In this document: one piece after another, positions 7,230 to 63,132 of the stretch | How the letters are laid out: the number at the start of each line of letters is the position of its first letter | Position numbering within the stretch: position 1 is the first letter of the stretch | From: a bacterium | GTDB lineage: Bacteria > JAMCPX01 | Direction: 5' to 3' | NCBI GenBank assembly: GCA_021792615.1 | Contig: JAJYUJ010000005.1 | Coordinates: 6,075-70,074, forward strand | DNA: 64,000 bases | Translations under genes and position numbers: made by a program | Notes under the pieces: generated by a model | What the model saw: only the letters and a program-made list of their open reading frames with translations | Told to the model about the DNA's origin: nothing | The model's database searches: none

Positions 7230-7239
7230 GTAAGCCTCC

Positions 7240-15288: not shown

Positions 15289-15332
15289 TGCGGTCACCTC
15301 CTTATCATATACGAACAATGACGGTGAATTTG

Positions 15333-19073: not shown

Positions 19074-20780
19074 TCATACACCAGCACCCTGCATCTTTTC
19101 CCGGTCGATGGTATCGGGCGTAACCCCTTCTTTTGATAAAACACCTTTGATGACCCGCTGGGTTTCTGTCTTCGGCAGTTCCTGCATAATGCGAAAATAA
19201 CGCGGAATGGCAAACAGGGCGAGGTGTTCTTTCAAAAAGGAGCTCACTTCTTTGACATCCAGCTTCCCGCCTTCAACCGGTACCACGGCAGCCATAACAT
19301 CATCCTCGCCAAGCTCCGAAGGTACGCCGTAAACCGCGCATTCGAGGATGCCCGGGTACTGCAGAATTGCATGTTCAACCTCATAGGCGGAAATGTTCTC
19401 CCCCCTGCGTCTCAGAGATTCCGTTTTCCTGCCGATAAAATAGAGATATCCTTTTTTGTCCGCATGGACGAGGTCTCCGGTATGCAGCCATCCGTCCCTG
19501 AGTTTCGACGAGGTCGCCTTTTCGTCCTTGTAGTATACCACGTCCTTATTGGCTTTTTTGCCGGTGAAGAAAATCAGCTCGCCGGACTGTCCCTGCCGTA
19601 CGTCCTTGTTCTCATCGTCAACGATCCGGTACTTTGCGCCGAGCGGCTTGCCCATACTGCCGGCAGGCGCCTGCCCGTAGTTCATGACGATGATACCGCC
19701 GCCGTCCACCGCACCGTAACCCTCGATCAGCTGAACGCCGAACCGTTTCTCGAACGGCCCCCACATGTCGGACGGGCACGCTGCAGAGAGCACGTGTTTC
19801 ACCGAGTGATTGCGATCGCCGGCTTGCTGCGGCTGTTTCATCAAAATCGGGATGATACCGCCAATAGTGTTGAATACCGTCGCTTTGGTTTCGCGTACCT
19901 CGTTCCAGAACCTGCTCGCACTGAATTTCTCCCTGAGCGCTACCTGTGCTCCGACGTTCATGGCTGCAGTAACGGTGAGCAGGATCGCGTTCGCATGGAA
20001 CAGGGGCAGGCAGGTGAAATACACGTCGTCCCTGGTGAGGAGCACGCGGTTGATAAGCTTCATCTTCCGGACGTTCGTACGTCCGTAAAAGGTCGGTACG
20101 CCTTTCGGAAGGCCGGTCGTGCCGGACGTGTAGAGAAGCATGCACCGATCGCCTTCCCGCGCGCTCACCCCCGGCTTCGCGGTGCTGATGCCGGGACCGT
20201 ACGCCTCGTCCAGCACTTGCCGGGACAGAGAGGATGCCGGGACCTGTTTGTCGGCACCGTTCGCGGTGATAACGAGCGGAGGCGAAGGAAGATCGCTTTT
20301 TATCTTTTCGTAGTACTGCAGGAGTTCCTGATCGATGCACGCATAACGCGCATCCGAGTGCTTGAATATATGCGCGAGCTGGGTCGAGCGCAGGGCTATG
20401 TTCACCGGCACCGCACACATACCGAGCTTTTGCGCACCGAAGAATACGTCGAGCCATCGCGGTGAATTCTTCATCACGATCGCGATCGCCTGACCGGGTT
20501 CTGCACCGAGTCCCCTCAAATAGTTTGCGACCCTGTTTGCGTTCCCGTCCATCTCCGCATAGGTATATGACCTGCCATAGAAGTCCAGAAACAGCCTGTC
20601 TCCGTGCCGGGCCGCGCACTCTTCTAATAGCCCTGCGTGAGAAACATCGTGCGCTATGGTCAGCTTGCCCCGCGACCGGCTCAGGCGGATGGTATCCCCC
20701 AGCGTGCCGCGCCTGAATTCTTCCCATCCCAGCACAACGGCCCCGGCGAATAATTTCCTCAGAAAGGTAGACGTCTTCAT
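19074..20780 (-). CDS. AMP-dependent acyl-CoA synthetase/ligase
   Basis: AMP-binding motifs are present: LLYTSGTTGLPKGV, the YGxxE region (IEGYGAVDGG) and the C-terminal GWLHTGDLVHADKKGYLYFIGRKTESLRRRGENIS. The true start is MKTSTF at 20780. The ORF-track start at 21131 runs through the 3' end of the thiolase gene in another frame, which is a GC-rich read-through artefact. Confidence 0.75.
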   Translation of the reverse strand: MKTSTFLRKLFAGAVVLGWEEFRRGTLGDTIRLSRSRGKLTIAHDVSHAGLLEECAARHGDRLFLDFYGRSYTYAEMDGNANRVANYLRGLGAEPGQAIAIVMKNSPRWLDVFFGAQKLGMCAVPVNIALRSTQLAHIFKHSDARYACIDQELLQYYEKIKSDLPSPPLVITANGADKQVPASSLSRQVLDEAYGPGISTAKPGVSAREGDRCMLLYTSGTTGLPKGVPTFYGRTNVRKMKLINRVLLTRDDVYFTCLPLFHANAILLTVTAAMNVGAQVALREKFSASRFWNEVRETKATVFNTIGGIIPILMKQPQQAGDRNHSVKHVLSAACPSDMWGPFEKRFGVQLIEGYGAVDGGGIIVMNYGQAPAGSMGKPLGAKYRIVDDENKDVRQGQSGELIFFTGKKANKDVVYYKDEKATSSKLRDGWLHTGDLVHADKKGYLYFIGRKTESLRRRGENISAYEVEHAILQYPGILECAVYGVPSELGEDDVMAAVVPVEGGKLDVKEVSSFLKEHLALFAIPRYFRIMQELPKTETQRVIKGVLSKEGVTPDTIDREKMQGAGV

Positions 20781-20799
20781 GTGCGATACTCCGGTCTGC

Positions 20800-22194
20800 C
20801 TACTTTTCCAGGATATGGATACACAGTGCGGCCTCTTCGTTGCCGAGTGCTCCGCCGCCGTTCTCTGCCAGCGCAATGTGCGCGTCCCGGACCTGCCGTT
20901 TCCCCGCCTCGCCCCTGAGTTGCGTAACAAGCTCGTTGATCTGCGCAAGGCCCGACGCACCGATGGGATGCCCGCGTGAGAGCAGCCCCCCGGAGGTGTT
21001 GATGGGTTTTTTCCCGCCGACCCTGGTCTCTCCCCGCTCCGCGTATACGCCGCCTTCTCCCTCGGGGAAAAATCCGAGTGCCTCGGTCTGGTGCAGCTCG
21101 CCGTACGCGGTCGCATCGTGCACTTCGGCAAGGTCTATGTCTTTCGGACCCAGCCCCGACTTCTCATACGCAATCCTGCCTGCCCGTTCCCCGATGTCCG
21201 GCTCGTCCTGGGTTCGCGTCCGTCCGGATGCAAGCACCGATGCCCTGACCTTCACCGCCCGCGCCAGCATGCCCAGCCGTTTCACGACGTCTCCGCTGGC
21301 GAGAATTGCAGAAGCGGCACCATCGCCGATCGGTGCGCACATCGCCCTCGTGAGGGGATAAGAGACCATGCGGTCGTTGAGGACATCGTCAACGGACACG
21401 TCGAAGGTATACTGGGCATTGGGATTCATGGTCGAGTGCCAGTGGTTCTTCGATGCTATGACGGCGAGCTGCCGCGGCGTGCTGCCGTACTTCTTCATAT
21501 GTGCCCGTGCAGCAAATGCGTAGACATCCATGAACGGCGAGTGATCGGCACCCGCTCCCTTGCCGGTGCCATTGAGGCCCGTGAGCAATTTTTTTACATT
21601 TCCGTAGCCCATGCTCTCGCCGAGAATGACATACGTTGCAAACATGTCCCAGTAGTTCTGCAGTTTTCCGCGCATACCGGCCTTGTTCTTTTTCGTCCGC
21701 GGCCTCGTGACGCCGGCCGGTACGTTCTTCGGTACTTCGAGCATCTCCGGTGCTGTCTTCTTAATATATTCGATCTGATCAAAGATACCGCCCACATCGA
21801 GCCCGCTCATAAACCCGGCGAACATCAGGTACTTATTCATCGCGTAAACCTTTTCCACGCCGATCGCCAGGGACACGTCCGTCATCCCGGACGCGACGTC
21901 CTTCCATGCGCTGTGAAAGGCCGTTGACCCTCCGGCGCATGCGTTTTCGACATTGGTTATGGGTATACCCTCTATGCCGAGGGGCCGCAGGGCGACCTGA
22001 CCGCGGATACAGTGCTGGAAGTTCCTCATCCCCCAGCCAGAGTTGGAAAACCATGCGGACTGGATGTCCTTTTTTTCGATACCCGCATCCTTGAATACCC
22101 CCTCGATAGTCCAGGCCGCAAGTTCCTTGATGCTGTTATCAAGGTACCTGCCGAACTTAATGGTGTGCGAACCGATTACATAAACGTCTCTCAT
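20800..22194 (-). CDS. Thiolase-family protein (SCP-x / nonspecific lipid-transfer-type thiolase) with an internal insertion
   Basis: A thiolase N-terminal catalytic Cys region (NVENACAGGSTAF) and C-terminal His/Cys motifs (NTSGGLLSRGHPIGASG) are present. There is a ~90-aa insertion relative to compact SCP2-thiolases. Confidence 0.75.
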   Translation of the reverse strand: MRDVYVIGSHTIKFGRYLDNSIKELAAWTIEGVFKDAGIEKKDIQSAWFSNSGWGMRNFQHCIRGQVALRPLGIEGIPITNVENACAGGSTAFHSAWKDVASGMTDVSLAIGVEKVYAMNKYLMFAGFMSGLDVGGIFDQIEYIKKTAPEMLEVPKNVPAGVTRPRTKKNKAGMRGKLQNYWDMFATYVILGESMGYGNVKKLLTGLNGTGKGAGADHSPFMDVYAFAARAHMKKYGSTPRQLAVIASKNHWHSTMNPNAQYTFDVSVDDVLNDRMVSYPLTRAMCAPIGDGAASAILASGDVVKRLGMLARAVKVRASVLASGRTRTQDEPDIGERAGRIAYEKSGLGPKDIDLAEVHDATAYGELHQTEALGFFPEGEGGVYAERGETRVGGKKPINTSGGLLSRGHPIGASGLAQINELVTQLRGEAGKRQVRDAHIALAENGGGALGNEEAALCIHILEK

Positions 22195-22206
22195 CCTAAA
22201 ATCCTC

Positions 22207-22530
22207 CTAAAATTTGCGCGGTGGTTCGGCACTGCCGCGGTCGAGATAATAGAAATGTTTCGTGAATTTAATGAATTCTTTGATCTCTATTGAATGCTGC
22301 GGACATATTGCAACACAATCCCCGCATGATATGCAGAACGGCAATTCTTCGACCATGCGCGCTTTTTTATTCACGACTTCGAGGGAATGGGCCGGACACG
22401 GTTTGATACAGTAACCGCATCCGTCACAGGTGTTCTGATCGATAACAACAACCCCGAAGGTAACATCCCTGCCGAGCTTATTGAAGCTCTCGATGTATAT
22501 TCTTTTCTTTATCGTTAAGTGTTCAGACAT
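22207..22530 (-). CDS. 2x[4Fe-4S] ferredoxin
   Basis: Two CxxCxxCxxxCP motifs are present (CDGCGYCIKPCP, CISCGDCVAICP). The start is taken at MSEHL (22530). The ORF track gives a longer start. Confidence 0.7.
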   Translation of the reverse strand: MSEHLTIKKRIYIESFNKLGRDVTFGVVVIDQNTCDGCGYCIKPCPAHSLEVVNKKARMVEELPFCISCGDCVAICPQHSIEIKEFIKFTKHFYYLDRGSAEPPRKF

Positions 22531-22540
22531 AGTATGCCTC

Positions 22541-23287
22541 TCAGTAAACGACTTTAAAGGTTCCATTCTCGCCGAACCAGTCGATCGCCTGCGTTTCCCG
22601 GCTGACATTCCCGTCGGGAACCCCGCGCGGATAGCCTATCGCAATAGACGTAACAAGCTTGTACGGATAGCGGATACCAAGACGTTTCCTCCACTTCGCG
22701 TACATCTTCAGCGGCGTCATAAAACTGACCCAGCATGTCCCCAGACCGTAGCTGTGTGCGGTCAGTACCATGTTCTCTCCTGCAATACCCGTGTCGAGTG
22801 ACGGGTCACCCGGCGAACGCTTGTCCGCAAGCAGAATGAGCACGGTCGGCGCACCATGCCATAATCCAAGTTTTCCATCGGCGATAAGCCGCATGGCTCC
22901 GAACGGTACCGGATGGAACATATTCGGCAGAAAGCGCATCAGGAATTTTGCAACCCATTCCTTATGCTTTGTCCATGAACCGAGGTACCATGCAAACCGC
23001 ATTACCAGTTTCAACTTTTTTATCACATCATCTTCCATTTCTTTGATCATCTTCTGGTCCTGCACCACGATAAACTTCCACGGCTGTCCGTTGCCGGCGG
23101 ATGGTGCAAACCTGCCTGCTTCTATAATCCTCCGGACGATGTATTCCGGAACTTGTTTGTTTTTCTCATAAAACCGGACGCTCCTGCGGCTGTAAATAAC
23201 GTTTTCGACGGAATTAAACGCATCACCAGGCTCCGGGAAGCGGGTACCCGTCTCAGGTGCAATTCGTGTATCATTCAGGTGTATCAT
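22541..23287 (-). CDS. Nitroreductase-family flavoprotein (candidate enone reductase)
   Basis: Nitroreductase signatures RRSVRFY and APSAGNGQPWKFIVV are present. The start is taken at MIHLND (23287), which has a GGAGAA RBS. Length is 248 aa. Confidence 0.7.
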   Translation of the reverse strand: MIHLNDTRIAPETGTRFPEPGDAFNSVENVIYSRRSVRFYEKNKQVPEYIVRRIIEAGRFAPSAGNGQPWKFIVVQDQKMIKEMEDDVIKKLKLVMRFAWYLGSWTKHKEWVAKFLMRFLPNMFHPVPFGAMRLIADGKLGLWHGAPTVLILLADKRSPGDPSLDTGIAGENMVLTAHSYGLGTCWVSFMTPLKMYAKWRKRLGIRYPYKLVTSIAIGYPRGVPDGNVSRETQAIDWFGENGTFKVVY

Positions 23288-23327
23288 AGGTATTCTCCTT
23301 GCGGCACAAATGTATTCTTTGTGATCT

Positions 23328-24455
23328 TTATTGACCTTTCGCCATCGCACTTACCAGTCCGAGCTTACGCAGGGGGAACAGCCCCAGCAGCGCTTGTACC
23401 TGCTTGGCGTCCCGGAAACGCTTCTCCTGACCATAGTCTTTCATGTAACCGTTACCACCCAGGATCTGTATGCCGTCCGTAGTCAGTTTGCACGCCAGCT
23501 CGGACAGGTGCAGTGCAGCGGCACGGGCTGAGAGCCCCCACTGCGGGTCCTGCTGATCCACAGCCATCGCAGCCCCGGAAACTACCATGTCCGCTATCCC
23601 GGCCTGTACGGCCATGTCACCGAGCAACATGCGCAGTGCCGACCAGTTGATAATCTCCCGGCCGCCCTGAAAGCGCTCCTGACTGTAGGAAAGGGCCTCC
23701 TGAAATGCACCCTTCATGATACCGCACTGGATGGCGGCAACTGCCGCGTGCATTCGGTCGGAAGCATGATCGAAACAACGCGCTCCGTCGCCTTCCTTGC
23801 CTACCGGTCTTCCTTCAACCCCTGCAAGTGTAAGATCCACGCCGGGACATGCATGCAGACCCAGACTGAATATGGGCTCGCTCTTCGTAAGTCCCTTTCC
23901 TCCCTGGTCGATGAGAAAGAACGTATACCCGTCCTGACCTTTGATGCGTGCCGGTACCAGAGCATGACCTGCCATACCGCCAAGAACAACGTATTCGATC
24001 GTGCCGCTGAGACTGTAGGTACCACCGGTCCTGACGGCATCGAGACGGGTTTGGGTCTCGCCGGGGTTGCAGAAAGCCGGGTAAGCGATCAAGGTGGAGC
24101 GGGCATCGGTTGCCTGTCCCATGATGTCTTTCAGGGTATCTTTACCTCCGGCCGCAAGCATAATCTCCTGGGCAAGGACATTGGTAAAAATAATACCGCT
24201 CAAGCTGGCGTCCACCGCACTGATCCGGTCGAGGATGACGCACAGGGCACCGATGCCCTGCCCGGCACCGCTGCACTCCTCCGGTACGGTTATGCCCAGC
24301 AGCCCGGCTTCGTAAGCCCTGGCCACCACGGGATCGAAAAAAGGTCCGAAGGGGTAGCTGTCGTTGACCTTCCGGTTAGCCGTGAGTTCTCTGACTGCGA
24401 AATTGTGTGCCAGGTCTTCAAAAGGTTTTAATTCGGATTTTATCGTCGTTAACAT
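23328..24455 (-). CDS. Acyl-CoA dehydrogenase-like protein lacking the catalytic glutamate (probable non-catalytic beta subunit)
   Basis: An ACAD fold is present, but the C-terminal (Y/F)EGT box reads RDAKQVQALLG, so there is no Glu. It lies immediately downstream of a full ACAD. Confidence 0.7.
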   Translation of the reverse strand: MLTTIKSELKPFEDLAHNFAVRELTANRKVNDSYPFGPFFDPVVARAYEAGLLGITVPEECSGAGQGIGALCVILDRISAVDASLSGIIFTNVLAQEIMLAAGGKDTLKDIMGQATDARSTLIAYPAFCNPGETQTRLDAVRTGGTYSLSGTIEYVVLGGMAGHALVPARIKGQDGYTFFLIDQGGKGLTKSEPIFSLGLHACPGVDLTLAGVEGRPVGKEGDGARCFDHASDRMHAAVAAIQCGIMKGAFQEALSYSQERFQGGREIINWSALRMLLGDMAVQAGIADMVVSGAAMAVDQQDPQWGLSARAAALHLSELACKLTTDGIQILGGNGYMKDYGQEKRFRDAKQVQALLGLFPLRKLGLVSAMAKGQ

Positions 24456-24467
24456 GGTTACCTCCGC

Positions 24468-25976
24468 CTATTCATCAAATGAACGGGCCTGCGGGATGGA
24501 ACTCCCGATCAGGTTATTGAAAAGGTTGATACGGTTCAACTGATTGGTGCCTTCGTAGATCTGCAGGAGCTTGGAGTCCCGCAGGAACTTTTCGGCACCG
24601 CGCTCGTGCCGCAGTCCGGCCTGTCCCATCAACTCAACGGCCATCTGGCTGTTCTTTACTCCCATGTCTGTTCCTACGATTTTTGCCAGAGACGCCCACC
24701 CGGAACAGCGCTGCTGCACCTCCATGGACTGGCTGTCCACAAAAAGCCTGCGGAATATCCGCTGTGTGATCTCAAAGTCCAGGAGCGGGCTTATCAGGTA
24801 ATTAAAAATGAATTTCGGCGCGTACTTCTGGTAATAATAGACCGGCTTTCGCTGGAGGATATTGTAGATGCCCCCCGGCAGCCCGTTGGCATAGTTCGCC
24901 TCGGTATAGCTCAGCCTGCCGATGACGACGTTCTTGTACATCTCCGCCAGCATTGCCTGGGCCCACTCATGGTTGATGAGGAGCTTTCCGTCGACCTCGG
25001 TCTCGCCGGCGAACTTGAGGGCCGTCTCGTATGCCCCCCTGGCCACGCCGGTACCGAACGCCCCGACTGCCGGCCTGGTGACTGAGACAACAAAATGGAT
25101 ATACTGCTCTATGAGGTCCGCAATCGGCCGTGTCCCGAAGCCCTCCCGTATGCGGGAATCTCTCAGGACATATTCATCCGGTATAAAACAATCTTCAAAG
25201 ATCAATTCGCTTGCTGGGCATGCCCGCTGGCCCATTTTGTCCTCGTGCTTGCCGAAGGTAAATCCTTTCGTACCGGTCCTGACCGCAAACGTCACGGTAT
25301 TTTCCGAGGCCTTTTTCAGGTCCGAATAGGCTATGAGGCAGCACCATTCGGAGACATGACCCATGGAAATGAAGATCTTGCTTCCGTTCACGATATAACC
25401 GCCCTTGACCTTCTCGGCGTGGCAGTTCAGACGGGCACGGTCGATCAGCTCATTCTCTTCCACATCCGTACCCGCGCCGGGCTCTGTTAAAGCAAGGGAA
25501 ATGATGCACGGTTTGCCGGTCTTTTGTCCCCTGACCACCTCCCTGAATATCTTGTTGGCAAGGGACACGTTCCATGAAGCGAGGATCCCCGCCACACCAA
25601 GATAGTGGACAAAGACCACGTTTGCTATGCCTACGCAGGCCGAGGAAAGCTCTTCGACCACATACGCGCTGGCAGGCATGTTGAACCCCTGCCCGCCGAA
25701 CAACTTCGGAATAAACATGGTGTAAAAACCCCATTCATTGGCCTTTTTGACAAGGTCCCAGGGCAGGTACTCCGGGTCAGCATGCGTCTGCCGGTCAATC
25801 TCGAGTGCATGCGGCCGGACGACCTCATCGTTGAATTTTTTTGCCAGGGCAACGGCCTTTCGGGTTTCTTTCAGCATACCCCTGGGTAGTTTCGGCATGG
25901 CCTGCAAACTGAACAGGCTTTCATCGAAGCGCGATTCACGGTCCGGCAAAGATTTACTTCCTTCCGGTGAAATCAT
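24468..25976 (-). CDS. Acyl-CoA dehydrogenase (long form; catalytic Glu present)
   Basis: ACAD motifs are present, including RDSKLLQIYEGTNQLNRI. The start is taken at MISPEG (25976), which has an AAGGAGGAG RBS. Length is about 503 aa. Confidence 0.75.
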   Translation of the reverse strand: MISPEGSKSLPDRESRFDESLFSLQAMPKLPRGMLKETRKAVALAKKFNDEVVRPHALEIDRQTHADPEYLPWDLVKKANEWGFYTMFIPKLFGGQGFNMPASAYVVEELSSACVGIANVVFVHYLGVAGILASWNVSLANKIFREVVRGQKTGKPCIISLALTEPGAGTDVEENELIDRARLNCHAEKVKGGYIVNGSKIFISMGHVSEWCCLIAYSDLKKASENTVTFAVRTGTKGFTFGKHEDKMGQRACPASELIFEDCFIPDEYVLRDSRIREGFGTRPIADLIEQYIHFVVSVTRPAVGAFGTGVARGAYETALKFAGETEVDGKLLINHEWAQAMLAEMYKNVVIGRLSYTEANYANGLPGGIYNILQRKPVYYYQKYAPKFIFNYLISPLLDFEITQRIFRRLFVDSQSMEVQQRCSGWASLAKIVGTDMGVKNSQMAVELMGQAGLRHERGAEKFLRDSKLLQIYEGTNQLNRINLFNNLIGSSIPQARSFDE

Positions 25977-25992
25977 AACTCCTCCTTTATCC

Positions 25993-26763
25993 TCAATCGT
26001 CGATGAGGTTCCTCGGCGGAAACAGGACCATCTCATTGACCGGTATATACTGGAACACAAGCGGTTTTTTGCTCAAACCTATACTGTTCAGTTCCATGGC
26101 TATTTTGTGGTCATTGCCGATATCGAGCACCGCCGCATTCCTGTCCATGGTCTGCTTGAATTCGATGGGATTTGTATAGATGTTCGCGCAAAGGGGTACG
26201 CCGTCTTTCACGGAATAAGTCTTGAACCTGAGTGTCTTACCCTGTGAAGTGCTTTGTTTTTTGCCCCGGAGTGAAAGGATCTTTTTGCCGTTCTCGGAAA
26301 GCGTACATTCGAGATACTCCTTTTCCCTCTTGAAGGCTATGTCCGCAATGAATTTTGGATAGCCGTAAAGCTCCACACCGGCATATCGGGCTATCTCCGT
26401 TGTAACAGGCAGGTGCCAGACATATGCATGGAAGCAGTGCTTGCCCATATCCGATAGTATCGTAATGCCCGGCACAGGCTTTTTACCGAAACCGATTATA
26501 ATGGAGATGCTGAACTCATTGTACGGATCGATGTCCGTTTTACGGTACTCGAACGCCGAGAATCCGACAAGACACCTTCCGGGGAATACCTCTGCAGGAT
26601 GCATATCCGGATGCGGCAGGTATTTCTTCACCTTTTTTGTCGAGGCTGTGAATATTGCCGTCATGGCGGTGTTGTCGTAATAAAATACCGGGATCGTGCC
26701 TTTAAACCCCGATTCGTTCTGAACCTCCCATTGAACAATACCCTTGAACAGTTCTCCTTTCAT
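25993..26763 (-). CDS. Acetoacetate-decarboxylase-family protein (candidate double-bond isomerase, CLA-DC-like)
   Basis: ELYGYPKFIADIAFK aligns with the ADC active-site segment ELSAYPKKLGYPKLFVD (Schiff-base Lys). At about 256 aa, the length matches ADC-family proteins. Confidence 0.65.
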   Translation of the reverse strand: MKGELFKGIVQWEVQNESGFKGTIPVFYYDNTAMTAIFTASTKKVKKYLPHPDMHPAEVFPGRCLVGFSAFEYRKTDIDPYNEFSISIIIGFGKKPVPGITILSDMGKHCFHAYVWHLPVTTEIARYAGVELYGYPKFIADIAFKREKEYLECTLSENGKKILSLRGKKQSTSQGKTLRFKTYSVKDGVPLCANIYTNPIEFKQTMDRNAAVLDIGNDHKIAMELNSIGLSKKPLVFQYIPVNEMVLFPPRNLIDD

Positions 26764-26773
26764 ATGTTCCTCC

Positions 26774-27700
26774 TTATTTTGCTTTCAGGCTATCCACCAT
26801 CTCGATAAACGCCTCTTCTGCCGTTTTTGTCGGCCTCCAGTGCAGATCTTTTTCGGCCTTTGCATTGCTTATGTTCATCGGATACCTGCCGAGTTCGACC
26901 CAATGGCTTGAAAAACTCATAATGCCGAGCTTGAAATTCAGGTCCGCAAGTACCTTTGCGATCCTGTAGGGAATGCCGATCGCTTTTTTATCCAATATCT
27001 CAGACATCCTCTTGATAGTCAGGGCACCGGTGTGGATATTGAAAGCACCGGGATGGTCCTCGATAATGGCTGTAAAAAATGCACTGCTTACATCACCTTC
27101 ATACACCAGCGGCAACCCGTATGTATTCCCCCGCACGTACGTTATCACCGGAAACTTAACGACATCTGCGAAAAAGTTGTTGACATTTTTGCCGCAGAAA
27201 ATGGAAGGGCGCATCCTCGTAAGGATCATGTTTGGATTTTTTCTTTCAAACTCATCGAGCATCCCTTCAACGATCCGTTTGGTGTCTGAATAATAGGAAG
27301 CTTTATTCCCCTGAAGGGGAGAATCCTCGGTAATCGTATAATCACGATCAACACAACCATACGCTGCAACACTGCTTGCGATGACCAGTTTCCCGGGTTT
27401 ATTTTCCTCACAGGAGGCGAGGAGATTTTTTGTTCCGTTGAGATTGATATCATAGGTGAGCTTCTTGTCTTTTATCTCCTGAACAATGAAGGTCAGGTGA
27501 ACAATGGTATCACAGCCTTTCAGCGCGTTTCCCAGGGCATTATCCCGCACATCGCACCGGACAAAGGTGAGCTTCTTATGCTGGAACAAAGGCTCCTTCA
27601 GATCGATACCGGTTATGGATTCGACCGCATCGCTGCGTACGAGGGATTTTGTGAGGAGCGTGCCCAGATAGCCGGATATACCGGTTATGCCTACCTTCAT
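26774..27700 (-). CDS. NAD(P)-dependent epimerase/dehydratase-family (extended SDR) oxidoreductase (candidate hydroxy-fatty-acid dehydrogenase)
   Basis: Glycine-rich N-terminus GITGISGYLG and the catalytic YxxxK (YYSDTK). Length is 308 aa. Confidence 0.75.
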   Translation of the reverse strand: MKVGITGISGYLGTLLTKSLVRSDAVESITGIDLKEPLFQHKKLTFVRCDVRDNALGNALKGCDTIVHLTFIVQEIKDKKLTYDINLNGTKNLLASCEENKPGKLVIASSVAAYGCVDRDYTITEDSPLQGNKASYYSDTKRIVEGMLDEFERKNPNMILTRMRPSIFCGKNVNNFFADVVKFPVITYVRGNTYGLPLVYEGDVSSAFFTAIIEDHPGAFNIHTGALTIKRMSEILDKKAIGIPYRIAKVLADLNFKLGIMSFSSHWVELGRYPMNISNAKAEKDLHWRPTKTAEEAFIEMVDSLKAK

Positions 27701-28329
27701 GACCCGCTCCTTTCTCTGTGAATGCCGTCGAGCGTAAAACTTACGAGAATTTTTACCAGTTCATCCCGTTCATATCCATCGTAAATATACAATTGTGCAA
27801 CCTGCGAAAGCATTCCAACCATCGCCCATCCAATGGTTTTAGCCTCCAGACGCTTCATGGGCCTGATGAATCCAAGCTGGGACGCGGTCAAAACCCTTAT
27901 GCTCGTGTCTTCTGCAATGTTCTTATAGGTCTGCCATAAAATACCCGCCAATTCTTCATTGTGGCTCAAGCCTTCGCGGAAAAGGATCATGAAGTGGCTT
28001 CTGTAATTGTCCACATACTCGAAGAACGAACTGTATATGGCGTGCTGTGCGGTGGTTATGTCCCCGGGGCCGGCTGTCCTGCCTTTAAATGACTCCAGTT
28101 GTTTTTGAAACACATCCTCTATGTAATTTCTCAACTCAGAGCCTATTCGTACAACCGCTTCGCCGAACACATGGGATTTGTCTTTGAAGTACAGGTAAAA
28201 CGTTCCGGTACCAACACCTGCTTTCTTTGTAATCATAGGAACGGTTGTCTTTCTGAATCCCTTTGCCCCTATTACCTTGATTGCCGCATCTATCAAGCGC
28301 CTCTTGATAATCTCTTTTTTATTTACCAT
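27697..28329 (-). CDS. TetR/AcrR-family transcriptional regulator
   Basis: N-terminal HTH (GFRKTTVPMITKKAGVGTGTFYLYFKDK) and an alpha-helical ligand-binding C-terminus. Length is 210 aa. Confidence 0.8.
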   Translation of the reverse strand: MVNKKEIIKRRLIDAAIKVIGAKGFRKTTVPMITKKAGVGTGTFYLYFKDKSHVFGEAVVRIGSELRNYIEDVFQKQLESFKGRTAGPGDITTAQHAIYSSFFEYVDNYRSHFMILFREGLSHNEELAGILWQTYKNIAEDTSIRVLTASQLGFIRPMKRLEAKTIGWAMVGMLSQVAQLYIYDGYERDELVKILVSFTLDGIHRERSGS

Positions 28330-28356
28330 ATCGATCCTCTCGGAAACGCATCGAAC

Positions 28357-29976
28357 TTACCTGAGCAGGGTGGGAAGCATCTTGAACAATGCCAGAGGGT
28401 TATTGACCTGCGTGTAAACCGGAGGGACCTTCTCACCTGTATTTAAAAGATTACTCACTGCTATTTTCGCACATCTGATCGAAGACTCGACCAGCATGAC
28501 GCATTCTCCGCTCTCGGTAAACTGCCCCATAAAAGCAAGGTTGGTCGATCCTTGCGGTACTACCTGTGGCCTGTCGCTCCTTTTTCTCGGCAAAAAGTGA
28601 CTCATGACATACGGCAGCATCGCCGGGACACAGGTCGAATTCTTGAGGATGAGCGGCAGCTCTTTATCAAACCCAAGATGGCCGCACACTTCCGTCATGA
28701 TGTCCTCACCGTTGCATTCGGACATCTTCTTGTTTACATAGTTTCCCTTTTCAAACGGCATAAATCCGCATGCGGCCCATATATATCTGCCATTGGGCTG
28801 ATTACGGAAGTGCGGCTGGGCGGGGACAAGCACCGACGAATGCCAGTTGGACTCTGTTAACGTTACCATGTTTGCCTGGCCAGGCTTGTTTCCGGTAAAC
28901 TTTTCGTACAAATTTATAAATGTCCGGTCCCTGCTGTCTACCATGAAAATCATCCACGCGGACTGATCTCTATGACTGTCGAAATTAGCAGGATTGCCCA
29001 GTCCGGAACCCGGACGTTTTTTTACGATATTTTCCCAGAGTGTCCATGAGCCGTCCAGTTTCCCGCTTTCAAGGGCTGCCGGTTCCGTTACGGAACCCCG
29101 TCTCAAATCTGCAACCATCGATCCGTTGGTGACGAATACAAAGTCATTGTCTCCGACATCAATCTTTTCGTTTTTTCCGTTTCTTGCATAGTAGAAGCGT
29201 TCAACGGTCAACTCGTCCTGTACCGGTTTAAAATCGAGGTCTGTTACCTTGCACCGCATCTCAAAATGAACGCCTTTTTCTTCCAGCCATTTCCGCATTG
29301 GCTCGGTCATTGAATTATAATTATTGTACGGTGTGACCACTTCCGCCCTGCCGCTCACCATTTTATGGACATCCTGCATAAATCTGCGCGCATAGCGCTT
29401 CATCTCAACAAGATCATTCCAATACTCGATGGCAAACATCGAAGAAAAAACCTTCCAGAAATTGGTAGTAAAAAAGGTGGGATCGAACCATGAGTCAATC
29501 CGGCGGTTCTCGATCCGGCTTTCCGGGATGTATACCAGCTTTAACAACTTGCCCAGATGCTTCCATTTCAACCCCATGGACTCCGCATTATCGGTGCGTT
29601 GATGGGCATGGATTAAGCGCGATCTGGCGTTCTTTTTGTGTTTATCGTTATATTCGAAAATTTCATCCGTGACCGATTTATCCGGTTGATCCAAAGAAGG
29701 TATCTCCGATAAGACATCCCAGGTACAATTGTAGACCTTACGATGAAACTTCCAGTCGCCGAACGTAAAGTAACTCGTATCAGGCGTGCCTTCACCGTAT
29801 AAACTCCCGCCAACACTTTCCCGTCCCTCAAAAATATGGATATTCTTCCCCGAAACGTGTGCATCCCTCACAGCAAAAATAGCTGCGGACAAACCGGCCA
29901 TTCCGCCTCCGGCAATATAGACCTTCGTTTTATCCGTTACAGCGGGGACCCGTCCGACAACACCTTTCACCTTCAT
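28357..29976 (-). CDS. Oleate/linoleate hydratase (FAD-dependent, myosin-cross-reactive-antigen family)
   Basis: An FAD-binding GxGxxG (YIAGGGMAGLSAA) is present, plus long-range similarity to MCRA hydratases (…FEGRESVGGSL…, …WMIFMVDSRD…). At 539 aa, the length is typical for the family. A TetR gene immediately downstream is a common arrangement. Confidence 0.8.
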   Translation of the reverse strand: MKVKGVVGRVPAVTDKTKVYIAGGGMAGLSAAIFAVRDAHVSGKNIHIFEGRESVGGSLYGEGTPDTSYFTFGDWKFHRKVYNCTWDVLSEIPSLDQPDKSVTDEIFEYNDKHKKNARSRLIHAHQRTDNAESMGLKWKHLGKLLKLVYIPESRIENRRIDSWFDPTFFTTNFWKVFSSMFAIEYWNDLVEMKRYARRFMQDVHKMVSGRAEVVTPYNNYNSMTEPMRKWLEEKGVHFEMRCKVTDLDFKPVQDELTVERFYYARNGKNEKIDVGDNDFVFVTNGSMVADLRRGSVTEPAALESGKLDGSWTLWENIVKKRPGSGLGNPANFDSHRDQSAWMIFMVDSRDRTFINLYEKFTGNKPGQANMVTLTESNWHSSVLVPAQPHFRNQPNGRYIWAACGFMPFEKGNYVNKKMSECNGEDIMTEVCGHLGFDKELPLILKNSTCVPAMLPYVMSHFLPRKRSDRPQVVPQGSTNLAFMGQFTESGECVMLVESSIRCAKIAVSNLLNTGEKVPPVYTQVNNPLALFKMLPTLLR

Positions 29977-30250
29977 AGTACGTTACCCTCCTTGAGCTGA
30001 AATTAAAAAAATATCTCTGAAAAATATCTTTCAATAAGCATCTCCCTGAAAGCGCCCCCACTAAAATTAGCTTTTTACACATATTCCATGCGATGTCAAG
30101 AAAAATATATTCAGTATTATTGATTATGTTATATCCATATTTTACATGTAGTTACATTATATATATGAATATTATTTCATATTTATTTCTCTTTTGTGAA
30201 TTAACTTATAAAAAATATGCGTTTGATAAATAGGAAAGTTTATGCAATGA
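29977..30250 (-). promoter_or_regulatory. AT-rich putative promoter/operator region of the hydratase operon
   Basis: About 270 nt of very AT-rich sequence lie directly upstream of the hydratase start. It holds short direct repeats (AAATATCT x2; TTACAT x2 around the ACATGT palindrome). No experimental support. Confidence 0.3.
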
Positions 30251-30561
30251 ACGAGGGGGTATCCACCCGGCAGTGAAGGGGCGAGCGTCAAATAAAGGTA
30301 GTCTTCGAAAATCCGGGAAAAGAAACACAGAAGTTCTGTCATTGCAGGCCGACGGGCACACAGCGAAGCTGGGTCGAGCAATCCCTATGCTTGTAGATTG
30401 CTTCGTCTTCCCGCCTCCGGCTGGACTCCTCGCAATGACAAGCTTACAGAGGACTTAAACCTCGTCTTAACCCCCCTTTTCCCACTTATCAGGGGGGGTA
30501 CTTTCACCTGTCAAGGGAGAATGAGGGGGTTACGGATCGCGGGATTGAGCGAATAAGTAAA

Positions 30562-30580
30562 CTTTTCTCCCGTATGTTCC
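30562..30580. repeat. 17-nt direct repeat copy 1 (GTATGTTCCGGGTAACT)
   Basis: It occurs 10 nt below the thioesterase stop. A near-identical copy is at 31283–31300 (GTATGTTCCGGGTTACT). Confidence 0.5.
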
Positions 30581-30589
30581 GGGTAACTA

Positions 30590-31063
30590 TTACGTTCCCT
30601 GCACCTTGCGGCCAAGGCGTTCTCTCTGACGCATCTCGCCCTGCTGCCATCGCTCGCGCTCTTCATCTGATACCAGCGATAGACGCGGGACCTCTACGGG
30701 ACGTCCCTCTCCATTCAGTGCAACGTAGACGATATACGCCCGGTTCGTTATTCTTCGTCTGCCGGTTAGGATCTCTTCCGCTTCGACCACAACCTCTGTT
30801 TCCATGGAGGTGCGGCCCACATATGTAAGACGTGCACTGAAAGTGACAAGGTCACCTATATGGACGGGCTCAAGAAATGTAAGGGAATCCACGGCAACCG
30901 TGACAGCCGGTTCCCTTGCATGACGTGTGGCACACATAGCACCGGCATCATCCATAAGCTTCATGAGCACACCACCGTGTATATTGCCGAGGTTGTTTGC
31001 GTGCTCGGGCTGCATAAGCTGGCTCAAAACGAGTTCAGAATCTTTAACCTTTTTGGCTTCCAT
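30590..31063 (-). CDS. Acyl-CoA thioesterase (hotdog fold, YciA-like)
   Basis: The hotdog thioesterase motif NNLGNIHGGVLMKLMDDAGAM...VTVAVDSLTFLEPVHIGDLV is present. Length is 157 aa. Confidence 0.75.
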   Translation of the reverse strand: MEAKKVKDSELVLSQLMQPEHANNLGNIHGGVLMKLMDDAGAMCATRHAREPAVTVAVDSLTFLEPVHIGDLVTFSARLTYVGRTSMETEVVVEAEEILTGRRRITNRAYIVYVALNGEGRPVEVPRLSLVSDEERERWQQGEMRQRERLGRKVQGT

Positions 31064-32345: not shown

Positions 32346-33497
32346 TTAATCTGCTTTCTTTCTCAGAAATGTGGGAATATCGAGTTCATCTTCGTCATAT
32401 CCGGTCAGCATGACCTTTTTAACGGATTTCACAGAATCGATCTCGTCTATCTTTTTATCCGTGCGCTTAAACGCCGGGATATCCCTGTCTCCGTTGTTGT
32501 GGATAACCGAAAGCTTGCCCGGGTACTTGTCCTTCGTATTCCTCTCTCCGAAGCCGGTCGCAATCACCGTAACATTGAGGTTTTCACCCATATTGTCGTC
32601 AATGACCGTGCCGTAGATCACATTGGCATTTTCATCGACCTGTTCCTTGACAAGCTCGCATGCCTCTTTCACTTCGTTGAGCGTAAGGGACGCATCGCCG
32701 GTAATATTGATCAACACACCTTTCGCACCGTTTATGGATATATCCTCGAGCAAGGGGTTCGATATGGCTTCCTGAGCAGCATCCTTTGCCCTCTTCTCAC
32801 CGCCGCTTTTCCCGGTACCCATCATGGCCATACCCATCTCGCCCATGACCGTTTTTACATCGGCAAAATCAACATTCACGAGCCCCGGGATTGTTATGAT
32901 GTCCGATATGCCTCTGACGGCATGAACGAGCACATCATCAACCTTCACGTAGGCTTCGAGTACCGTGGTCTTATTATCCGAGATATTGAACAACCGGTCG
33001 TTCGGAATAACGATCAGGGTGTCGACATACTGGCTCAGCTCTTCGATGCCCTTTTCCGCCTTTGAAATTCTCTTCTTCCCTTCAAATTCGAACGGCTTGG
33101 TCACTACGGCCACGACGAGCGCACCGAGAGACTTGGCGAGCTCCGCTATTACCGGACTTGCGCCGGTCCCGGTTCCTCCTCCCATACCCGCGGTCAGGAA
33201 GATCATGTCGGCACCGGTCAACGCATCTTTTATCTTCGCCTCATCCTCCAACGCTGCTTCTTTCCCAATGTCCGGATTTGCACCAGCACCGAGCCCTTTC
33301 GTCAATTTGGCGCCGAGCTGAATTTTGTAGGTCGCCTTGTTTCTCGTCAGCACCTGCATATCCGTATTGGCAGCAATAAAGTCTACACCTTTCATTCCCT
33401 GCTTTATCATTGTATTCACGGCATTTCCTCCGCCGCCGCCCACACCAATCACCTTGATCTTTGCAGAATGATGATACTCATTACTTAACTCAAACAT
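32346..33497 (-). CDS. ftsZ: Cell division GTPase FtsZ
   Basis: Tubulin signature GGGTGTG and [14 protein letters not shown] are present. The start is taken at MFELS, which has an AAGGAGGA RBS. Confidence 0.95.
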
Positions 33498-33498
33498 T

Positions 33499-34725
33499 TT
33501 ATCCTCCTTTTCTAACAAACAATTTTGAAGCTATATTCGAAAAAAACTCTCTGATACTTCTCAGCAGATCTATGTCCCTGCCGTTGTACGCCCTGACATG
33601 TGTATGTTTACTCCCGTAGATGACCAACCCCACCGCTGTTGCGTACGACGGGTCCTTCACGACGTCCGTAAGCCCTCCGACACCGAGGGGAAAACCGATC
33701 CGTACCGGCAGATTGAATATCTGTTCACCGAGGTCGACAATGCCGTCCAGCAAAGAACTACCGCCGGTCAGGACAACACCCGCCGAAATAAACTCCTTGA
33801 ATCCGGACTTCACGAGCTCCTTGTCGACGAGAGACAGGATCTCTTCGACCCTGAGTTCTATTATCTCTGCGAGCGTCGAGCGGGATATTGTCCTCGGCTT
33901 CCTGTTGCCGATACCCGGGACTTCGACCATCTCGGCCTTGTCCACGTTTGTCCTCAGCGCAGTGCCGTATTTTATCTTGATCTTCTCGGCTTCATGGATG
34001 GGCGTTCTTAAACCAACGGACACGTCCTTGGTGATGTGTTCGCCTCCAAGGCCTATAACACTCGTGTATTTTATGCTTCCGTCGTAGAATATCGCTATGT
34101 CAGTCGTGCCCCCGCCGATATCTACGATAACGACACCGAGGTCCTTCTCTTCCGGGTTCAACACTGCTTCACTCGAGGCTATGGATTGAAGGGCGATGTC
34201 GGAAACGATAAGTCCCGACCTGTTGCATGCCTTTATGATGTTCATCGAAGACGACATGTTCGCAGTCACGATGTGCACCTTGGCTTCAAGCCGTACGCCG
34301 GACATTCCGGTCGGGTCCTTTATACCTCCCTGATCGTCGATTATGAACTCATACGGTATAACATGGATGACCTCCCTGTCCTGGGGTATGGGCATAGCCT
34401 TTGCGGCATCAACGACCCTCTTGATATCGCTTGCTTTCACTTCCCGGTCTTTTATCGCGATCACACCGTTACTGTTGAAGCTCTTGATGTGATCCCCGGC
34501 TATGCCGGTGTAGATACTCGATATGTCATAGTCGGACATAAGCTCCGCTTCTTCGATGGCCTGCCGAATTGCCTTGACCGTCGCTTCGATATTGATGATG
34601 TTCCCCTTGCTCAAGCCGTGAGACGGCGACACCTTCCCTATACCGACGATATCTATCATGCCTTCTTTCAGCTCTCCCACAATCGCGCATATCTTTGTTG
34701 TGCCTATATCAAGGCCAACAATCAT
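33499..34725 (-). CDS. ftsA: Cell division protein FtsA
   Basis: Actin-like ATPase motifs ([22 protein letters not shown]). It lies immediately upstream of ftsZ. Confidence 0.9.
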
Positions 34726-34726
34726 A

Positions 34727-48458: not shown

Positions 48459-48459
48459 C

Positions 48460-48780
48460 CTACCTGTCTATTGATAGTAACTGTTTGCTGTCCGGATAAA
48501 CCATATTCAACCTCGTTTTCGCTATCGTTTCGATCCTGCTCCTGCTTTTGAGCGTGGCTATTTCAAGATTGTACTTATCGATCTGCTCGGTCAAGTTCTG
48601 TGTTTGTAAAGCCAGCGCGGACATCCGGTAACTTGCCGCTATGAAGTTTATCCGGCTCCATATCAGGATCAGGGTAAAGAAAAGGATCACCGCAAGCGTT
48701 ATGAGGATCTTGAATGGAGCTATACTTATTGCCGGTACTGCCTGATAATCTATTGCTCTGTTATCTGCATAAGCTTTCAT
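48460..48780 (-). CDS. ftsL: Cell division protein FtsL
   Basis: A small bitopic protein with one TM helix plus a coiled-coil, in the conserved position between rsmH and ftsI. Confidence 0.55.
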   Translation of the reverse strand: MKAYADNRAIDYQAVPAISIAPFKILITLAVILFFTLILIWSRINFIAASYRMSALALQTQNLTEQIDKYNLEIATLKSRSRIETIAKTRLNMVYPDSKQLLSIDR

Positions 48781-48793
48781 ATACTATTACCTC

Positions 48794-63099: not shown

Positions 63100-63132
63100 A
63101 CTGCGGATTATTTCCCGGCAAAACGTAAAAAT

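Follow-up and report, generated by a model that had tools for sequence, protein, structure and literature searches.

An operon of an uncultured deltaproteobacterium that appears to join two widespread orphan gene modules to an accessory MCRA-family hydratase

A compact cluster of ten genes occupies the minus strand of a 64,000-nucleotide (nt) stretch of contig JAJYUJ010000005.1 (the window), whose host is an uncultured, probably anaerobic deltaproteobacterium. The cluster opens with a gene of the MCRA hydratase family (ohyA) and closes with a gene for an AMP-forming acyl-CoA ligase. Between them lie genes for a TetR regulator, an extended short-chain dehydrogenase/reductase (SDR), a protein of the ADC fold, two acyl-CoA dehydrogenases (ACAD-alpha and ACAD-beta), a nitroreductase-fold flavoprotein, a ferredoxin and a thiolase; all of these are known enzyme families, brought together in a setting that resembles beta-oxidation (Table 1). 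An earlier note on this DNA had read the cluster as a CoA-level counterpart of the bacterial pathway that saturates polyunsaturated fatty acids (PUFAs). Here we present evidence for a different composition. Judged from gene neighbourhoods in other genomes, the operon appears to be a fusion of two widespread orphan modules, one built around the ADC-fold protein and the ACAD pair (module A) and the other around the nitroreductase, the ferredoxin and the thiolase (module B), with the hydratase as an accessory part.

Table 1 Genes and candidate regulatory elements of the operon, in window coordinates
Feature	Position	Strand	Details
MCRA/OhyA-like gene	29976-28357	minus	539 aa; Pfam MCRA (PF06100)
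TetR regulator gene	28329-27697	minus	210 aa; Pfam TetR_N, E 5e-14
Extended SDR gene	27700-26774	minus	308 aa; Pfam Epimerase/3Beta_HSD
ADC-fold gene	26763-25993	minus	256 aa; Pfam ADC (PF06314)
ACAD-alpha gene	25976-24468	minus	502 aa; Pfam Acyl-CoA_dh N/M/C
ACAD-beta gene	24455-23328	minus	375 aa; Pfam Acyl-CoA_dh domains
Nitroreductase-fold flavoprotein gene	23287-22541	minus	248 aa; Pfam Nitroreductase (PF00881)
2x[4Fe-4S] ferredoxin gene	22530-22207	minus	107 aa; Pfam Fer4 dicluster
SCP2/BbsB-type thiolase gene	22194-20800	minus	464 aa; Pfam Thiolase_C_1
AMP-forming acyl-CoA ligase gene	20780-19074	minus	568 aa; Pfam AMP-binding
Candidate operon promoter, TTTTTCTTGACAT	30072-30105	minus	-35 hexamer TTGACA at 30099-30094
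AT-rich imperfect palindrome, ATGAAATAATATTCAT	30159-30186	-	candidate TetR operator; sequence as read on the minus strand

The ten genes follow one another at intervals of 27, -4, 10, 16, 12, 40, 10, 12 and 19 nt, in line with the earlier note's description of ten minus-strand genes no more than 40 nt apart. Pfam supports each of the ten family labels given there, and two finer points were also right: ACAD-beta lacks the catalytic Glu, with Leu at that site of the FEGT motif in an alignment to 3NF4, and the ferredoxin is of the 2x[4Fe-4S] kind, with two CxxCxxCxxxCP motifs at residues 35 and 66. All ten start codons are ATG, and 5-10 nt ahead of each lies a GGAG/AGGAGG-like Shine-Dalgarno sequence. 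Six of the products were looked up in a deposited genome of the same species, annotated by NCBI as 'MAG: Deltaproteobacteria bacterium' (MAG, metagenome-assembled genome), in which the sequences are identical or belong to the same 90%-identity clusters (MCL4468559, -560, -561, -564, -567 and -568). The gaps in this MCL44685xx numbering fit the four other genes, consistent with ten consecutive genes. The 90%-identity clusters of these proteins have as many as 16 members, which come from more than ten different contigs of up to 195 kb, and a copy of the whole cluster at 98-100% identity is found in GCA_021833125.1 (locus L088; L-numbers are labels of comparison loci from other genomes). Given the accession numbering, the multi-contig clusters and the L088 copy, the ten-gene arrangement is neither an assembly artefact nor a product of chance. 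As a separate observation, the thiolase, the ligase and the two ACAD genes (in 19074-25976) have a third-position GC of 0.64-0.72, against 0.52-0.60 in the ohyA, tetR, SDR, ADC, nitroreductase and ferredoxin genes and in most of the window, which suggests a mosaic origin or a differing codon bias for part of the operon.

Co-transcription of the ten genes as one unit is a well-supported prediction, for which the comparison with relatives tells more than the signals within the operon. The candidate promoter upstream of ohyA consists of TTTTTCTTGACAT, which includes the TTGACA, 16 nt ending in a conserved ATGTG, and TAAAAA. An element TTTCTTGACAT...ATGTG, which may act as the promoter, precedes ohyA both in the window and in L088; in two more distant relatives, L086 and L091, where tetR is the first gene of the cluster, it precedes tetR. 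The AT-rich region around this element holds a common imperfect palindrome, ATGAAATA(A/T)TATTCA. A repeat search found the palindrome ATGAAATAATATTCAT as inverted-repeat pairs; it overlaps a second promoter-like site (30200-30171), a related sequence (ATGAAATATTATTCAC) stands upstream of tetR in L086, and TetR may bind there. Because the element and the palindrome are common to them, one ancestral promoter/operator region would head the cluster in three lineages; in the window, ohyA sits between the conserved candidate promoter and tetR. We rejected a split of the operon by internal signals, because terminator-like and promoter-like sites within it are no more numerous than expected from shuffled sequence (20 versus 14.2 +/- 4.1 and 14 versus 12.5 +/- 3.5, respectively) and all of the internal terminator-like sites fall within coding sequence. 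The 613-nt spacer that separates ohyA from the 4HBT thioesterase gene upstream is AT-rich in its promoter-proximal half, and a search of this leader for structured RNA gave no Rfam match at E <= 1. Its distal half (30330-30589) is GC-rich, and a C/G-run inverted repeat, TAACCCCCCT / AGGGGGGGTA, lies at 30468-30500, also with no Rfam match.

Relatives of the cluster differ in where, and whether, they carry the hydratase gene. L088 repeats the ten genes in unchanged order, with the hydratase at the 5' end and a TetR that is 100% identical. L086 (proteins 66-94% identical) retains the nine genes from TetR to ligase, with no hydratase in the cluster, and shares the downstream neighbours of the window: a 158-aa protein, an OmpA-like protein and argH. 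In L091 (60-90% identical), the nine genes are followed at the 3' end, 39 nt past the ligase, by the hydratase gene (82% identical) and then by an alpha/beta hydrolase gene. Hydratase relatives at 55-65% identity recur in similar company in other genomes. The one of L100 stands beside TetR, a ligase (52%) and the same long thiolase (63%). In L101 the neighbours are an ACAD together with proteins of the SCP2-domain and DUF2148 types, in L113 a thiolase and a gene like that of ACAD-alpha, and in L104 an extended SDR. A further MCRA relative adjoins a geranylgeranyl-reductase-like gene (L103). About half of the hydratase-relative contexts are without such ligase, thiolase, ACAD or SDR genes. In L100, the identical palindrome AGTGAGYRCTCACT precedes both ohyA (about 780-800) and the tetR-ligase-thiolase genes (about 2640-2660), and is likely to be a shared TetR operator in that organism.

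The varied positions of the hydratase gene, and the one relative without it, suggest that it was gained, lost or relocated more than once; the same variety of positions, combined with shared regulation, argues for functional coupling to the cluster over chance adjacency. We conclude that the hydratase is an accessory and mobile part of the cluster, yet is truly linked to its CoA-dependent genes. The latter linkage had been proposed in the earlier note and is upheld by the occurrence of the gene at opposite ends of the nine-gene cluster, the shared candidate promoter and the palindrome in L100. These data also bear on the alternative that the hydratase is merely co-regulated with the cluster and inactivates toxic unsaturated fatty acids, with no metabolic hand-off. 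Hydratases are known as stand-alone detoxification enzymes in other bacteria, and OhyA of S. aureus is proposed to inactivate toxic unsaturated fatty acids. The gene is, moreover, dispensable in L086 and absent from 83 genomic loci that hold the ADC gene. We nevertheless consider this alternative very unlikely, as the hydratase is found at either end of the same cluster with the same candidate promoter ahead, and in other lineages genes for a ligase, thiolase, ACAD or SDR turn up time and again next to its relatives and, in L100, share a palindrome with one.

The hydratase itself is a full-length member of the MCRA family, its residues 17-507 matching positions 2-494 of 495 in the PF06100 profile (E 1.4e-163). 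It scores 534.5 bits against the NCBIfam oleate hydratase model NF010584, short of the cut-off of 567, which leaves it outside that equivalog; among solved structures it is closest to LAH (4IA5, the linoleate hydratase of L. acidophilus; E 1e-103) and to Em-OAH (4UIR). The FAD-binding GxGxxG is kept (GGGMAG, residues 23-28), as is the second catalytic Tyr: in the alignment, EMKRYARRF falls on the LKLYMHRF motif of 4UIR, so that Tyr195 corresponds to Y241 of Em-OAH. At the RGGREM loop the protein reads FGDWKF; the catalytic Glu (E122 of Em-OAH, E82 of Sa-OhyA) is replaced by Lys76, and the two Arg residues, including the gatekeeper, by Phe and Trp. Relatives at 55-65% identity carry RG[DA]RK at this site. 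OhyRe of Rhodococcus reportedly has no RGGREM Glu either, so that loss of the Glu is no proof of inactivity.

In module A, the SDR matches the Pfam families Epimerase (3e-23), 3Beta_HSD (1e-17) and GDP_Man_Dehyd. Its best PDB match is NSDHL (6JKG, E 6e-11), it also weakly matches SdmB and it contains the YxxxK motif. With no Pfam match to adh_short at E <= 0.01, it falls outside the classical SDRs; a classical adh_short SDR takes its position in about 30 of 83 related loci. The SDR of L088 (9057-10004) has 315 aa and its gene overlaps the start of the ADC gene; in the window the protein has 308 aa and the gap is 10 nt, a small C-terminal strain difference.

The ADC-fold protein scores 62.5 bits against the Pfam ADC profile (cut-off 29.8; E 5.7e-17) over profile positions 15-145 of 238 only, and phmmer returned no sequence match in the PDB. 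Its AlphaFold model (pLDDT 92) drew Foldseek matches solely from the ADC superfamily, at TM 0.5-0.66 and 10-15% identity, and is roughly equidistant from ADC, MppR, Sbi00515 and Swit_4259. K137 (YGYPK) and E83 (PYNE) are invariant in 30 ADC-fold sequences. They align with the Schiff-base K115 and with E76 of the C. acetobutylicum enzyme (CaADC, the sequence of which was verified against 3BH2), an alignment of low hhalign probability that rests on the agreement of motif and fold. The carboxylate-binding R29 of CaADC is replaced by an invariant N31. The protein thus shares with the ADC superfamily the fold, the GxPK Schiff-base Lys and the paired Glu, and departs from it in its low identity, in the exchange of Arg29 for Asn and in the association of its gene with ACAD alpha/beta. 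We propose that it represents a new subfamily, as judged by comparison with the solved members of the superfamily, which do not include CLA-DC of Lactobacillus plantarum. It probably still forms an imine with a ketone and is not obviously an acetoacetate-type decarboxylase. A tblastn search of plasmids with the verified C. acetobutylicum ADC gave no Lactobacillus record among the matches listed.

This ADC-fold family comprises at least 550 clusters at 90% identity, with members 55-80% identical to the window protein in several phyla; its hosts include Smithella/Syntrophaceae, Desulfobacterales, Spirochaetota/Leptospirales, Myxococcota, Aquabacterium and Acidimicrobiia, among others. Gene neighbours were counted in the 51 of 83 genome loci that extend at least 4 kb to both sides (greedy maps of open reading frames were too noisy for use in high-GC loci without ACADs). 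ACAD-alpha adjoins the ADC gene in 40 of the 51, ACAD-beta stands next to ACAD-alpha in 39 and an extended SDR is present in ten; a nitroreductase with a ferredoxin was present in only two, a thiolase in one and a hydratase in none. These neighbourhoods suggest a module A, composed of SDR, ADC-fold protein and ACAD alpha/beta, with or without TetR, that is conserved across several phyla.

ACAD-alpha contains all three ACAD Pfam domains, has MCAD as its best PDB match (E 9e-45) and retains the catalytic Glu475 (IYEGT); a ~60-residue insertion in the C-terminal domain leaves residues about 362-421 unaligned. Two adjacent ACAD genes, of which one has the catalytic base, are the pattern of a heteromeric enzyme, and the pair is kept in 39-40 of the 51 loci. 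ACAD alpha and beta are therefore a predicted heteromer, which implies one active site per heterodimer. Identity with the Syntrophus cyclohexanecarboxyl-CoA dehydrogenase was rejected (122-129 bits against an NCBIfam cut-off of 650), and identity with the steroid-type ChsE enzymes was unsupported, MCAD-type enzymes being nearest to ACAD-alpha; ACAD10/11 were not among its PDB matches, nor were steroid ACADs among the top ones. Elsewhere in the window, a second pair of adjacent ACAD genes (5991-8337, minus strand) consists of a 365-aa gene followed by a 444-aa open reading frame, the real start of which is probably later; it is 24-28% identical to the operon's ACAD alpha/beta and may be another two-gene ACAD unit.

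In module B, the nitroreductase-fold protein belongs clearly to its family (PF00881, E 2.9e-31; Foldseek matches to nitroreductases at probability 1.0 for a model of pLDDT 80) and carries an insertion of about 45 residues. Its closest PDB match is 5J62, an uncharacterised 'hub' nitroreductase (E 6e-17). The family has at least 1,650 members, with identities of 59% or more throughout the top 120. A ferredoxin gene directly follows the nitroreductase gene in five of six other contexts, with homologues 48-59% identical in L115-L117; in the sixth (L120), no ferredoxin was called and a 350-nt uncalled gap lies there. The same long thiolase occurs in five of the six, in most contexts directly after the ferredoxin gene or one gene later, and is 68-71% identical where measured (L116 and L117, after the nitroreductase and ferredoxin). 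Paired ACAD alpha and beta genes, a ligase gene and an extended SDR gene are often nearby, and none of the six contexts contains an ADC gene.

The thiolase (Pfam Thiolase_C_1, E 1e-39) is of the SCP2/BbsB type. In the PDB it comes nearest to BbsB, a subunit of benzoylsuccinyl-CoA thiolase (7PXP, E 2.6e-62), and it is also near SCP2 and archaeal thiolases. In alignment with 7PXP, the nucleophilic Cys (NACAGGS) and the His of GHP are kept, and its HDAT motif resembles the HDAF of BbsB. An insertion of about 78 residues is present, residues about 120-222 being extra relative to BbsB. An open reading frame for a DUF35 (BbsA-like) partner was found neither in the operon nor in L086, L088, L091 or L116-L120. 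BbsAB and the archaeal thiolase/DUF35 complexes thus share with the window thiolase the Cys-His pattern and an HDA(F/T) motif without a second Cys, and are unlike it in its lack of a DUF35/BbsA gene, its ~78-residue insertion and the association of its gene with a ferredoxin gene. The ligase (Pfam AMP-binding, E 4e-66) is best matched in NCBIfam by the ATP-dependent acyl-CoA ligase PRK06155 (464 bits), followed by long-chain fatty-acid-CoA ligase models, and in the PDB by oxalyl-CoA synthetase (6QJZ) and FATP2; copies 48% identical are present in the L117 and L071 clusters. These contexts point to a putative module B of nitroreductase, ferredoxin and long thiolase, with or without the ligase, that frequently shares ACAD alpha/beta and the SDR with module A. 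L071, from Spirochaetota, carries on one strand the nitroreductase, ferredoxin and ligase, an ADP-forming acyl-CoA synthetase, Ptb, an ACT protein, butyrate kinase, ACAD alpha/beta, ADC and an adh_short SDR.

Because modules A and B travel separately elsewhere, the operon is better described as a fusion of the two than as a CoA-level copy of the CLA system of L. plantarum. In that organism, one transcript carries cla-dh and cla-dc as well as cla-er, and cla-hy lies elsewhere (PMC9241672), in line with the unlinked hydratase of the earlier note. The note's central claim, that the cluster unites all four PUFA-saturation enzyme types, was overstated: the four superfamilies are present, but the matches stand at superfamily level only. 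The hydratase is of the MCRA family, as is implied by a CLA-HY label, yet scores below the oleate hydratase cut-off and has FGDWKF in place of RGGREM. The label CLA-DC holds for the ADC fold and the Schiff-base Lys, in a protein that is 10-15% identical to all solved members of the superfamily. The remaining two labels find no specific support. CLA-ER (4QLX) ranks 50th of the 56 PDB matches of the nitroreductase (E 4.4e-4, 23 bits, residues 25-80) and is absent from the top 50 Foldseek matches of its model, and the SDR is of the extended Epimerase/3beta-HSD class, not a classical short-chain enzyme like CLA-DH. The gene-neighbourhood search that the note had called for recovered the cluster in L088, L086 and L091, but ADC and nitroreductase genes mostly travel apart.

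The pathway proposed on these labels was a ferredoxin-driven PUFA saturation (biohydrogenation) at the CoA level: hydration at C10, oxidation to the 10-oxo acid, a shift of the C12 double bond into conjugation by the ADC-fold protein and reduction of the enone by the nitroreductase with ferredoxin, the ligase, ACADs and thiolase being add-ons. Several observations suit it. As in L. plantarum, SDR and ADC-family genes are adjacent (compare cla-dh and cla-dc) and a flavin reductase gene belongs to the same unit; a Schiff-base Lys without the carboxylate-binding Arg is compatible with a mid-chain ketone substrate; and a ferredoxin partner, to judge from redox potentials, suits a reductive electron sink better than an oxidative role. 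The differences nonetheless go deep. The window nitroreductase is paired with a ferredoxin and shows no specific kinship with CLA-ER, the operon also encodes a CoA ligase and a thiolase, its hydratase lies inside it without the canonical catalytic loop (the CLA hydratase being unlinked), the SDR is of another class, and the ADC-fold subfamily is separate and tied to ACAD alpha/beta. The ADC-fold gene is nearly always found with ACAD alpha/beta and without hydratase or nitroreductase, and the nitroreductase-ferredoxin pair usually with thiolase, ACADs and ligase and without ADC, pairings that would make no sense for a pure free-fatty-acid saturation route. The proposal accounts for the quartet of ADC, nitroreductase, SDR and MCRA proteins, not for the module structure, and we regard it as quite unlikely.

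Sister clusters contribute further enzymes. BchE/HpnJ/PhpK-like radical-SAM genes occur in three of the nitroreductase contexts and alpha/beta hydrolases in two. The radical-SAM genes lie directly upstream of the nitroreductase and ferredoxin in two unrelated MAGs (L117, 6217-7950; L119, 7253-8986) and about 1.1 kb upstream, with two genes between, in L115 (4909-6846); their likeness to HpnJ/BchE/PhpK is weak, and a B12-binding domain is on record for L115 only. An alpha/beta hydrolase accompanies the cluster in L091, L117 and L119 and also matches haloalkane-dehalogenase-type models. The L091 hydrolase (11254-12102) matches the N-terminal half of the hydrolase-SDR fusion model PRK05855 (E 1.6e-34), and the classical SDR beside the ADC gene in Smithella-type loci (L001, 9080-9937) matches its C-terminal half (E 2.9e-56); this fusion may be epoxide-hydrolase-like. 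The hydrolases and BchE-like radical-SAM enzymes may be alternative front ends that install oxygen. They could also be read as signs of biosynthesis, that is, of the tailoring of membrane or storage lipids (keto-, hydroxy- or branched) through Claisen condensation, reduction and decarboxylation. The sister clusters with B12/radical-SAM enzymes and alpha/beta hydrolases would fit such a role, the set of thiolase, SDR, AMP-ligase and alpha/beta hydrolase recalls OleABCD, and the ADC-fold enzyme could decarboxylate a 2-alkyl-3-oxo acid. However, the OleABCD olefin/beta-lactone pathway was rejected, as the thiolase is of the SCP2/BbsB and not the OleA/FabH type and OleD models reach 38-48 bits against a cut-off of 580; nor was an OleC model found among the best 25 of the 103 ligase matches. 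No ACP or acyltransferase gene is present, and TetR and neighbouring genes for ABC importers, CoA transferases, Ptb/Buk and electron transfer flavoprotein (ETF) indicate catabolism. Biosynthesis therefore seems improbable to a high degree.

A heteromeric ACAD with an inactive beta subunit, together with an SCP2/BbsB-type thiolase, is a hallmark of the degradation of branched or bulky acyl-CoAs such as steroid side chains and benzylsuccinate. This raises the question of whether the nine genes degrade a bulky non-fatty lipid acid, the side chain of an isoprenoid, steroid or bile acid or a hopanoid-derived one, of which the divergent MCRA protein would hydrate a C=C. Both features occur here, the thiolase being nearest to BbsB; the SDR matches 3Beta_HSD/NSDHL and, weakly, SdmB, the ligase also matches a steroid-22-oyl-CoA synthetase model, the MCRA active-site loop is remodelled and the MCRA relative of L103 adjoins the geranylgeranyl-reductase-like gene. 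The steroid and bile-acid enzymes ChsE1-E2, ChsE4-E5 and Scd1AB likewise come from adjacent ACAD genes, one without the catalytic base. Unlike them, the window ACAD-alpha is nearest to MCAD, with steroid ACADs absent from its top PDB matches, has the 60-residue insertion and has neither a MaoC hydratase nor an Ltp2-type aldolase as partner, and modules of the window type are found in Desulfobacterota, Spirochaetota and other phyla. Genes of the KstD or KSI type are also lacking, the Ptb/Buk context of L071 suggests ordinary acyl-CoA end products and, to our knowledge, MCRA-family enzymes act on fatty acids only. A bulky non-fatty substrate is thus unlikely, in our view.

The reading that we favour, tentatively and at somewhat less than even chances, is that the operon serves the TetR-controlled catabolism of unsaturated and/or mid-chain-oxygenated long-chain fatty acids. 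Breakdown of an exogenous lipid acid is indicated by the TetR regulator, the ligase, the catabolic neighbours, the MCAD-like alpha subunit and the repeated linkage to MCRA genes. Among such neighbours are the Ptb, butyrate kinase and ADP-forming acyl-CoA synthetase of L071, the CoA transferases, ligases and ABC uptake system of L005 and, in L118, ETF genes next to the cluster; past these divergent ETF genes, L118 also has an APH gene. What the sequences show is which genes and protein families are present, which catalytic residues are kept, how the modules are conserved and that the hydratase is repeatedly linked to the cluster along with a common candidate promoter. Beyond this, we infer a scheme for the substrate, for the order and direction of the steps and for the roles of the ADC-fold protein, nitroreductase and ferredoxin. 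The MCRA enzyme would add water to an isolated C=C of a free fatty acid, giving a secondary alcohol in mid-chain that the SDR would oxidise to a ketone, and the ligase would form the CoA thioester. The heteromeric ACAD, with a roomy pocket, and the long BbsB-like thiolase may then carry out a shortening of beta-oxidation type on the bulky oxygenated acyl-CoA. The Schiff-base Lys of the ADC-fold protein might act on the keto group, as an enone isomerase/hydratase or a beta-keto decarboxylase, and the nitroreductase, fed by ferredoxin, might reduce a conjugated C=C (enone or dienoyl). Together, the last two steps would remove the keto or enone group that stalls beta-oxidation at the 4-oxo/4-hydroxy stage. 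Such a stall is documented: oleate is converted via 10-hydroxystearate to 10-ketostearate, three rounds of beta-oxidation of which yield 4-ketolaurate, and this blocks further beta-oxidation (PMC7411827). Likewise, 4-hydroxy acids require atypical ACADs (PMC12440821).

Several observations weigh against this catabolic scheme. None of the clusters examined contains a gene for an enoyl-CoA hydratase (crotonase or MaoC), so that the beta-oxidation cycle they encode is incomplete, the chief weakness of every reading along these lines. Beta-oxidation of oleate can proceed with no hydration step, which makes the gain from a hydratase route unclear, and hydration of oleate by the window protein is itself unproven because the RGGREM Glu and both Arg are lost. 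No MCRA hydratase occurs in any of the 83 ADC genome loci, and a relative as close as L086 has the nine genes with no hydratase in the cluster. The radical-SAM genes of the sister clusters could point to lipid tailoring. Finally, a cultured carrier with an informative context was not found; the one isolate that the search recovered is gamma proteobacterium HdN1, which has a stand-alone copy of the long thiolase, 63% identical (L121, FP929140.1 4537789-4559177). In HdN1, an anaerobic alkane degrader, the thiolase gene has a rubredoxin gene and a gene for a 209-aa protein of unknown function as neighbours.

Two known routes come close to the scheme that we favour. Micrococcus luteus and other actinobacteria channel oleate into beta-oxidation through a hydratase and a secondary-alcohol dehydrogenase (PMC7411827); unlike what is proposed here, that route stalls at 4-ketolaurate or gamma-dodecalactone, and its genes are not described as one cassette. 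By comparison, the window co-encodes the ADC-fold protein, the nitroreductase-ferredoxin pair and the heteromeric ACAD, which might resolve the block. The lva operon of P. putida and the ACAD10-ACAD11 system combine a ligase, an SDR and an atypical ACAD for gamma-oxygenated acyl-CoAs that normal beta-oxidation cannot handle (PMC12440821). The window ACAD differs in being heteromeric and in having the canonical Glu where LvaC and ACAD10/11 have Asp. Membership of the LvaC/ACAD10/11 group was rejected by the published criteria (PMC12440821), given that canonical Glu in ACAD-alpha and the lack of an APH-type kinase gene in the operon. Our literature search found no paper on the ADC-fold/ACAD module, on the nitroreductase-ferredoxin-thiolase module or on an MCRA gene embedded in such a cluster.

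It is possible, if rather doubtful, that the operon and its modules reflect an undescribed, oxygen-independent way of handling keto and enone groups on aliphatic acyl-CoA chains. An ADC-fold enzyme with a heteromeric ACAD and a ferredoxin-coupled nitroreductase acting as ene-reductase with a lid-bearing thiolase would jointly carry out isomerisation, hydration, reduction or cleavage around a mid-chain ketone. They would thereby offer a kinase-independent alternative to the solution that LvaABC and ACAD10-11 provide for the 4-oxo/4-hydroxy block. Under this doubtful but broader proposal, hydratases, alpha/beta hydrolases and radical-SAM enzymes would be interchangeable front ends that install oxygen.

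The surroundings of the operon in the window are as follows. Upstream lies a complete dcw cluster for cell division and murein synthesis (mraZ to ftsZ; 32346-50119, minus strand), separated from the operon by an AIRS-family gene and then by the 4HBT hotdog thioesterase gene (30590-31063, minus strand), which is present in L088 and does not adjoin the cluster in L086. A bacterial class A RNase P RNA was recognised at 63132-63496 on the minus strand (full-length match, 298 bits). A protein with a tocopherol-cyclase-family domain (PF14249, E 1.5e-12) is encoded at 14158-15318 on the minus strand and is unusual for a deltaproteobacterial MAG.

Whatever its mechanism, the operon is a defined and testable ten-gene unit, for which nature supplies variants without the hydratase and with the hydratase at the other end as controls. 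If the catabolic reading is true, it would give a function to two orphan sets, the ADC-fold family (at least 550 clusters) and the nitroreductase-ferredoxin-thiolase set (well over a thousand members). Syntrophs, sulfate reducers, spirochaetes and other bacteria of sediments and digesters commonly carry these sets. The catabolic reading would also widen the catalytic repertoire of the ADC fold, of the nitroreductase fold and of MCRA proteins without the canonical Glu, a gain relevant to the biocatalysis of hydroxy and keto fatty acids. Finally, the operon would show how anaerobes rid themselves of hydroxy-, oxo- and unsaturated fatty acids on which ordinary beta-oxidation stalls, such as 10-hydroxy- and 10-oxostearate, known products of the microbial hydration of oleate (PMC7411827).

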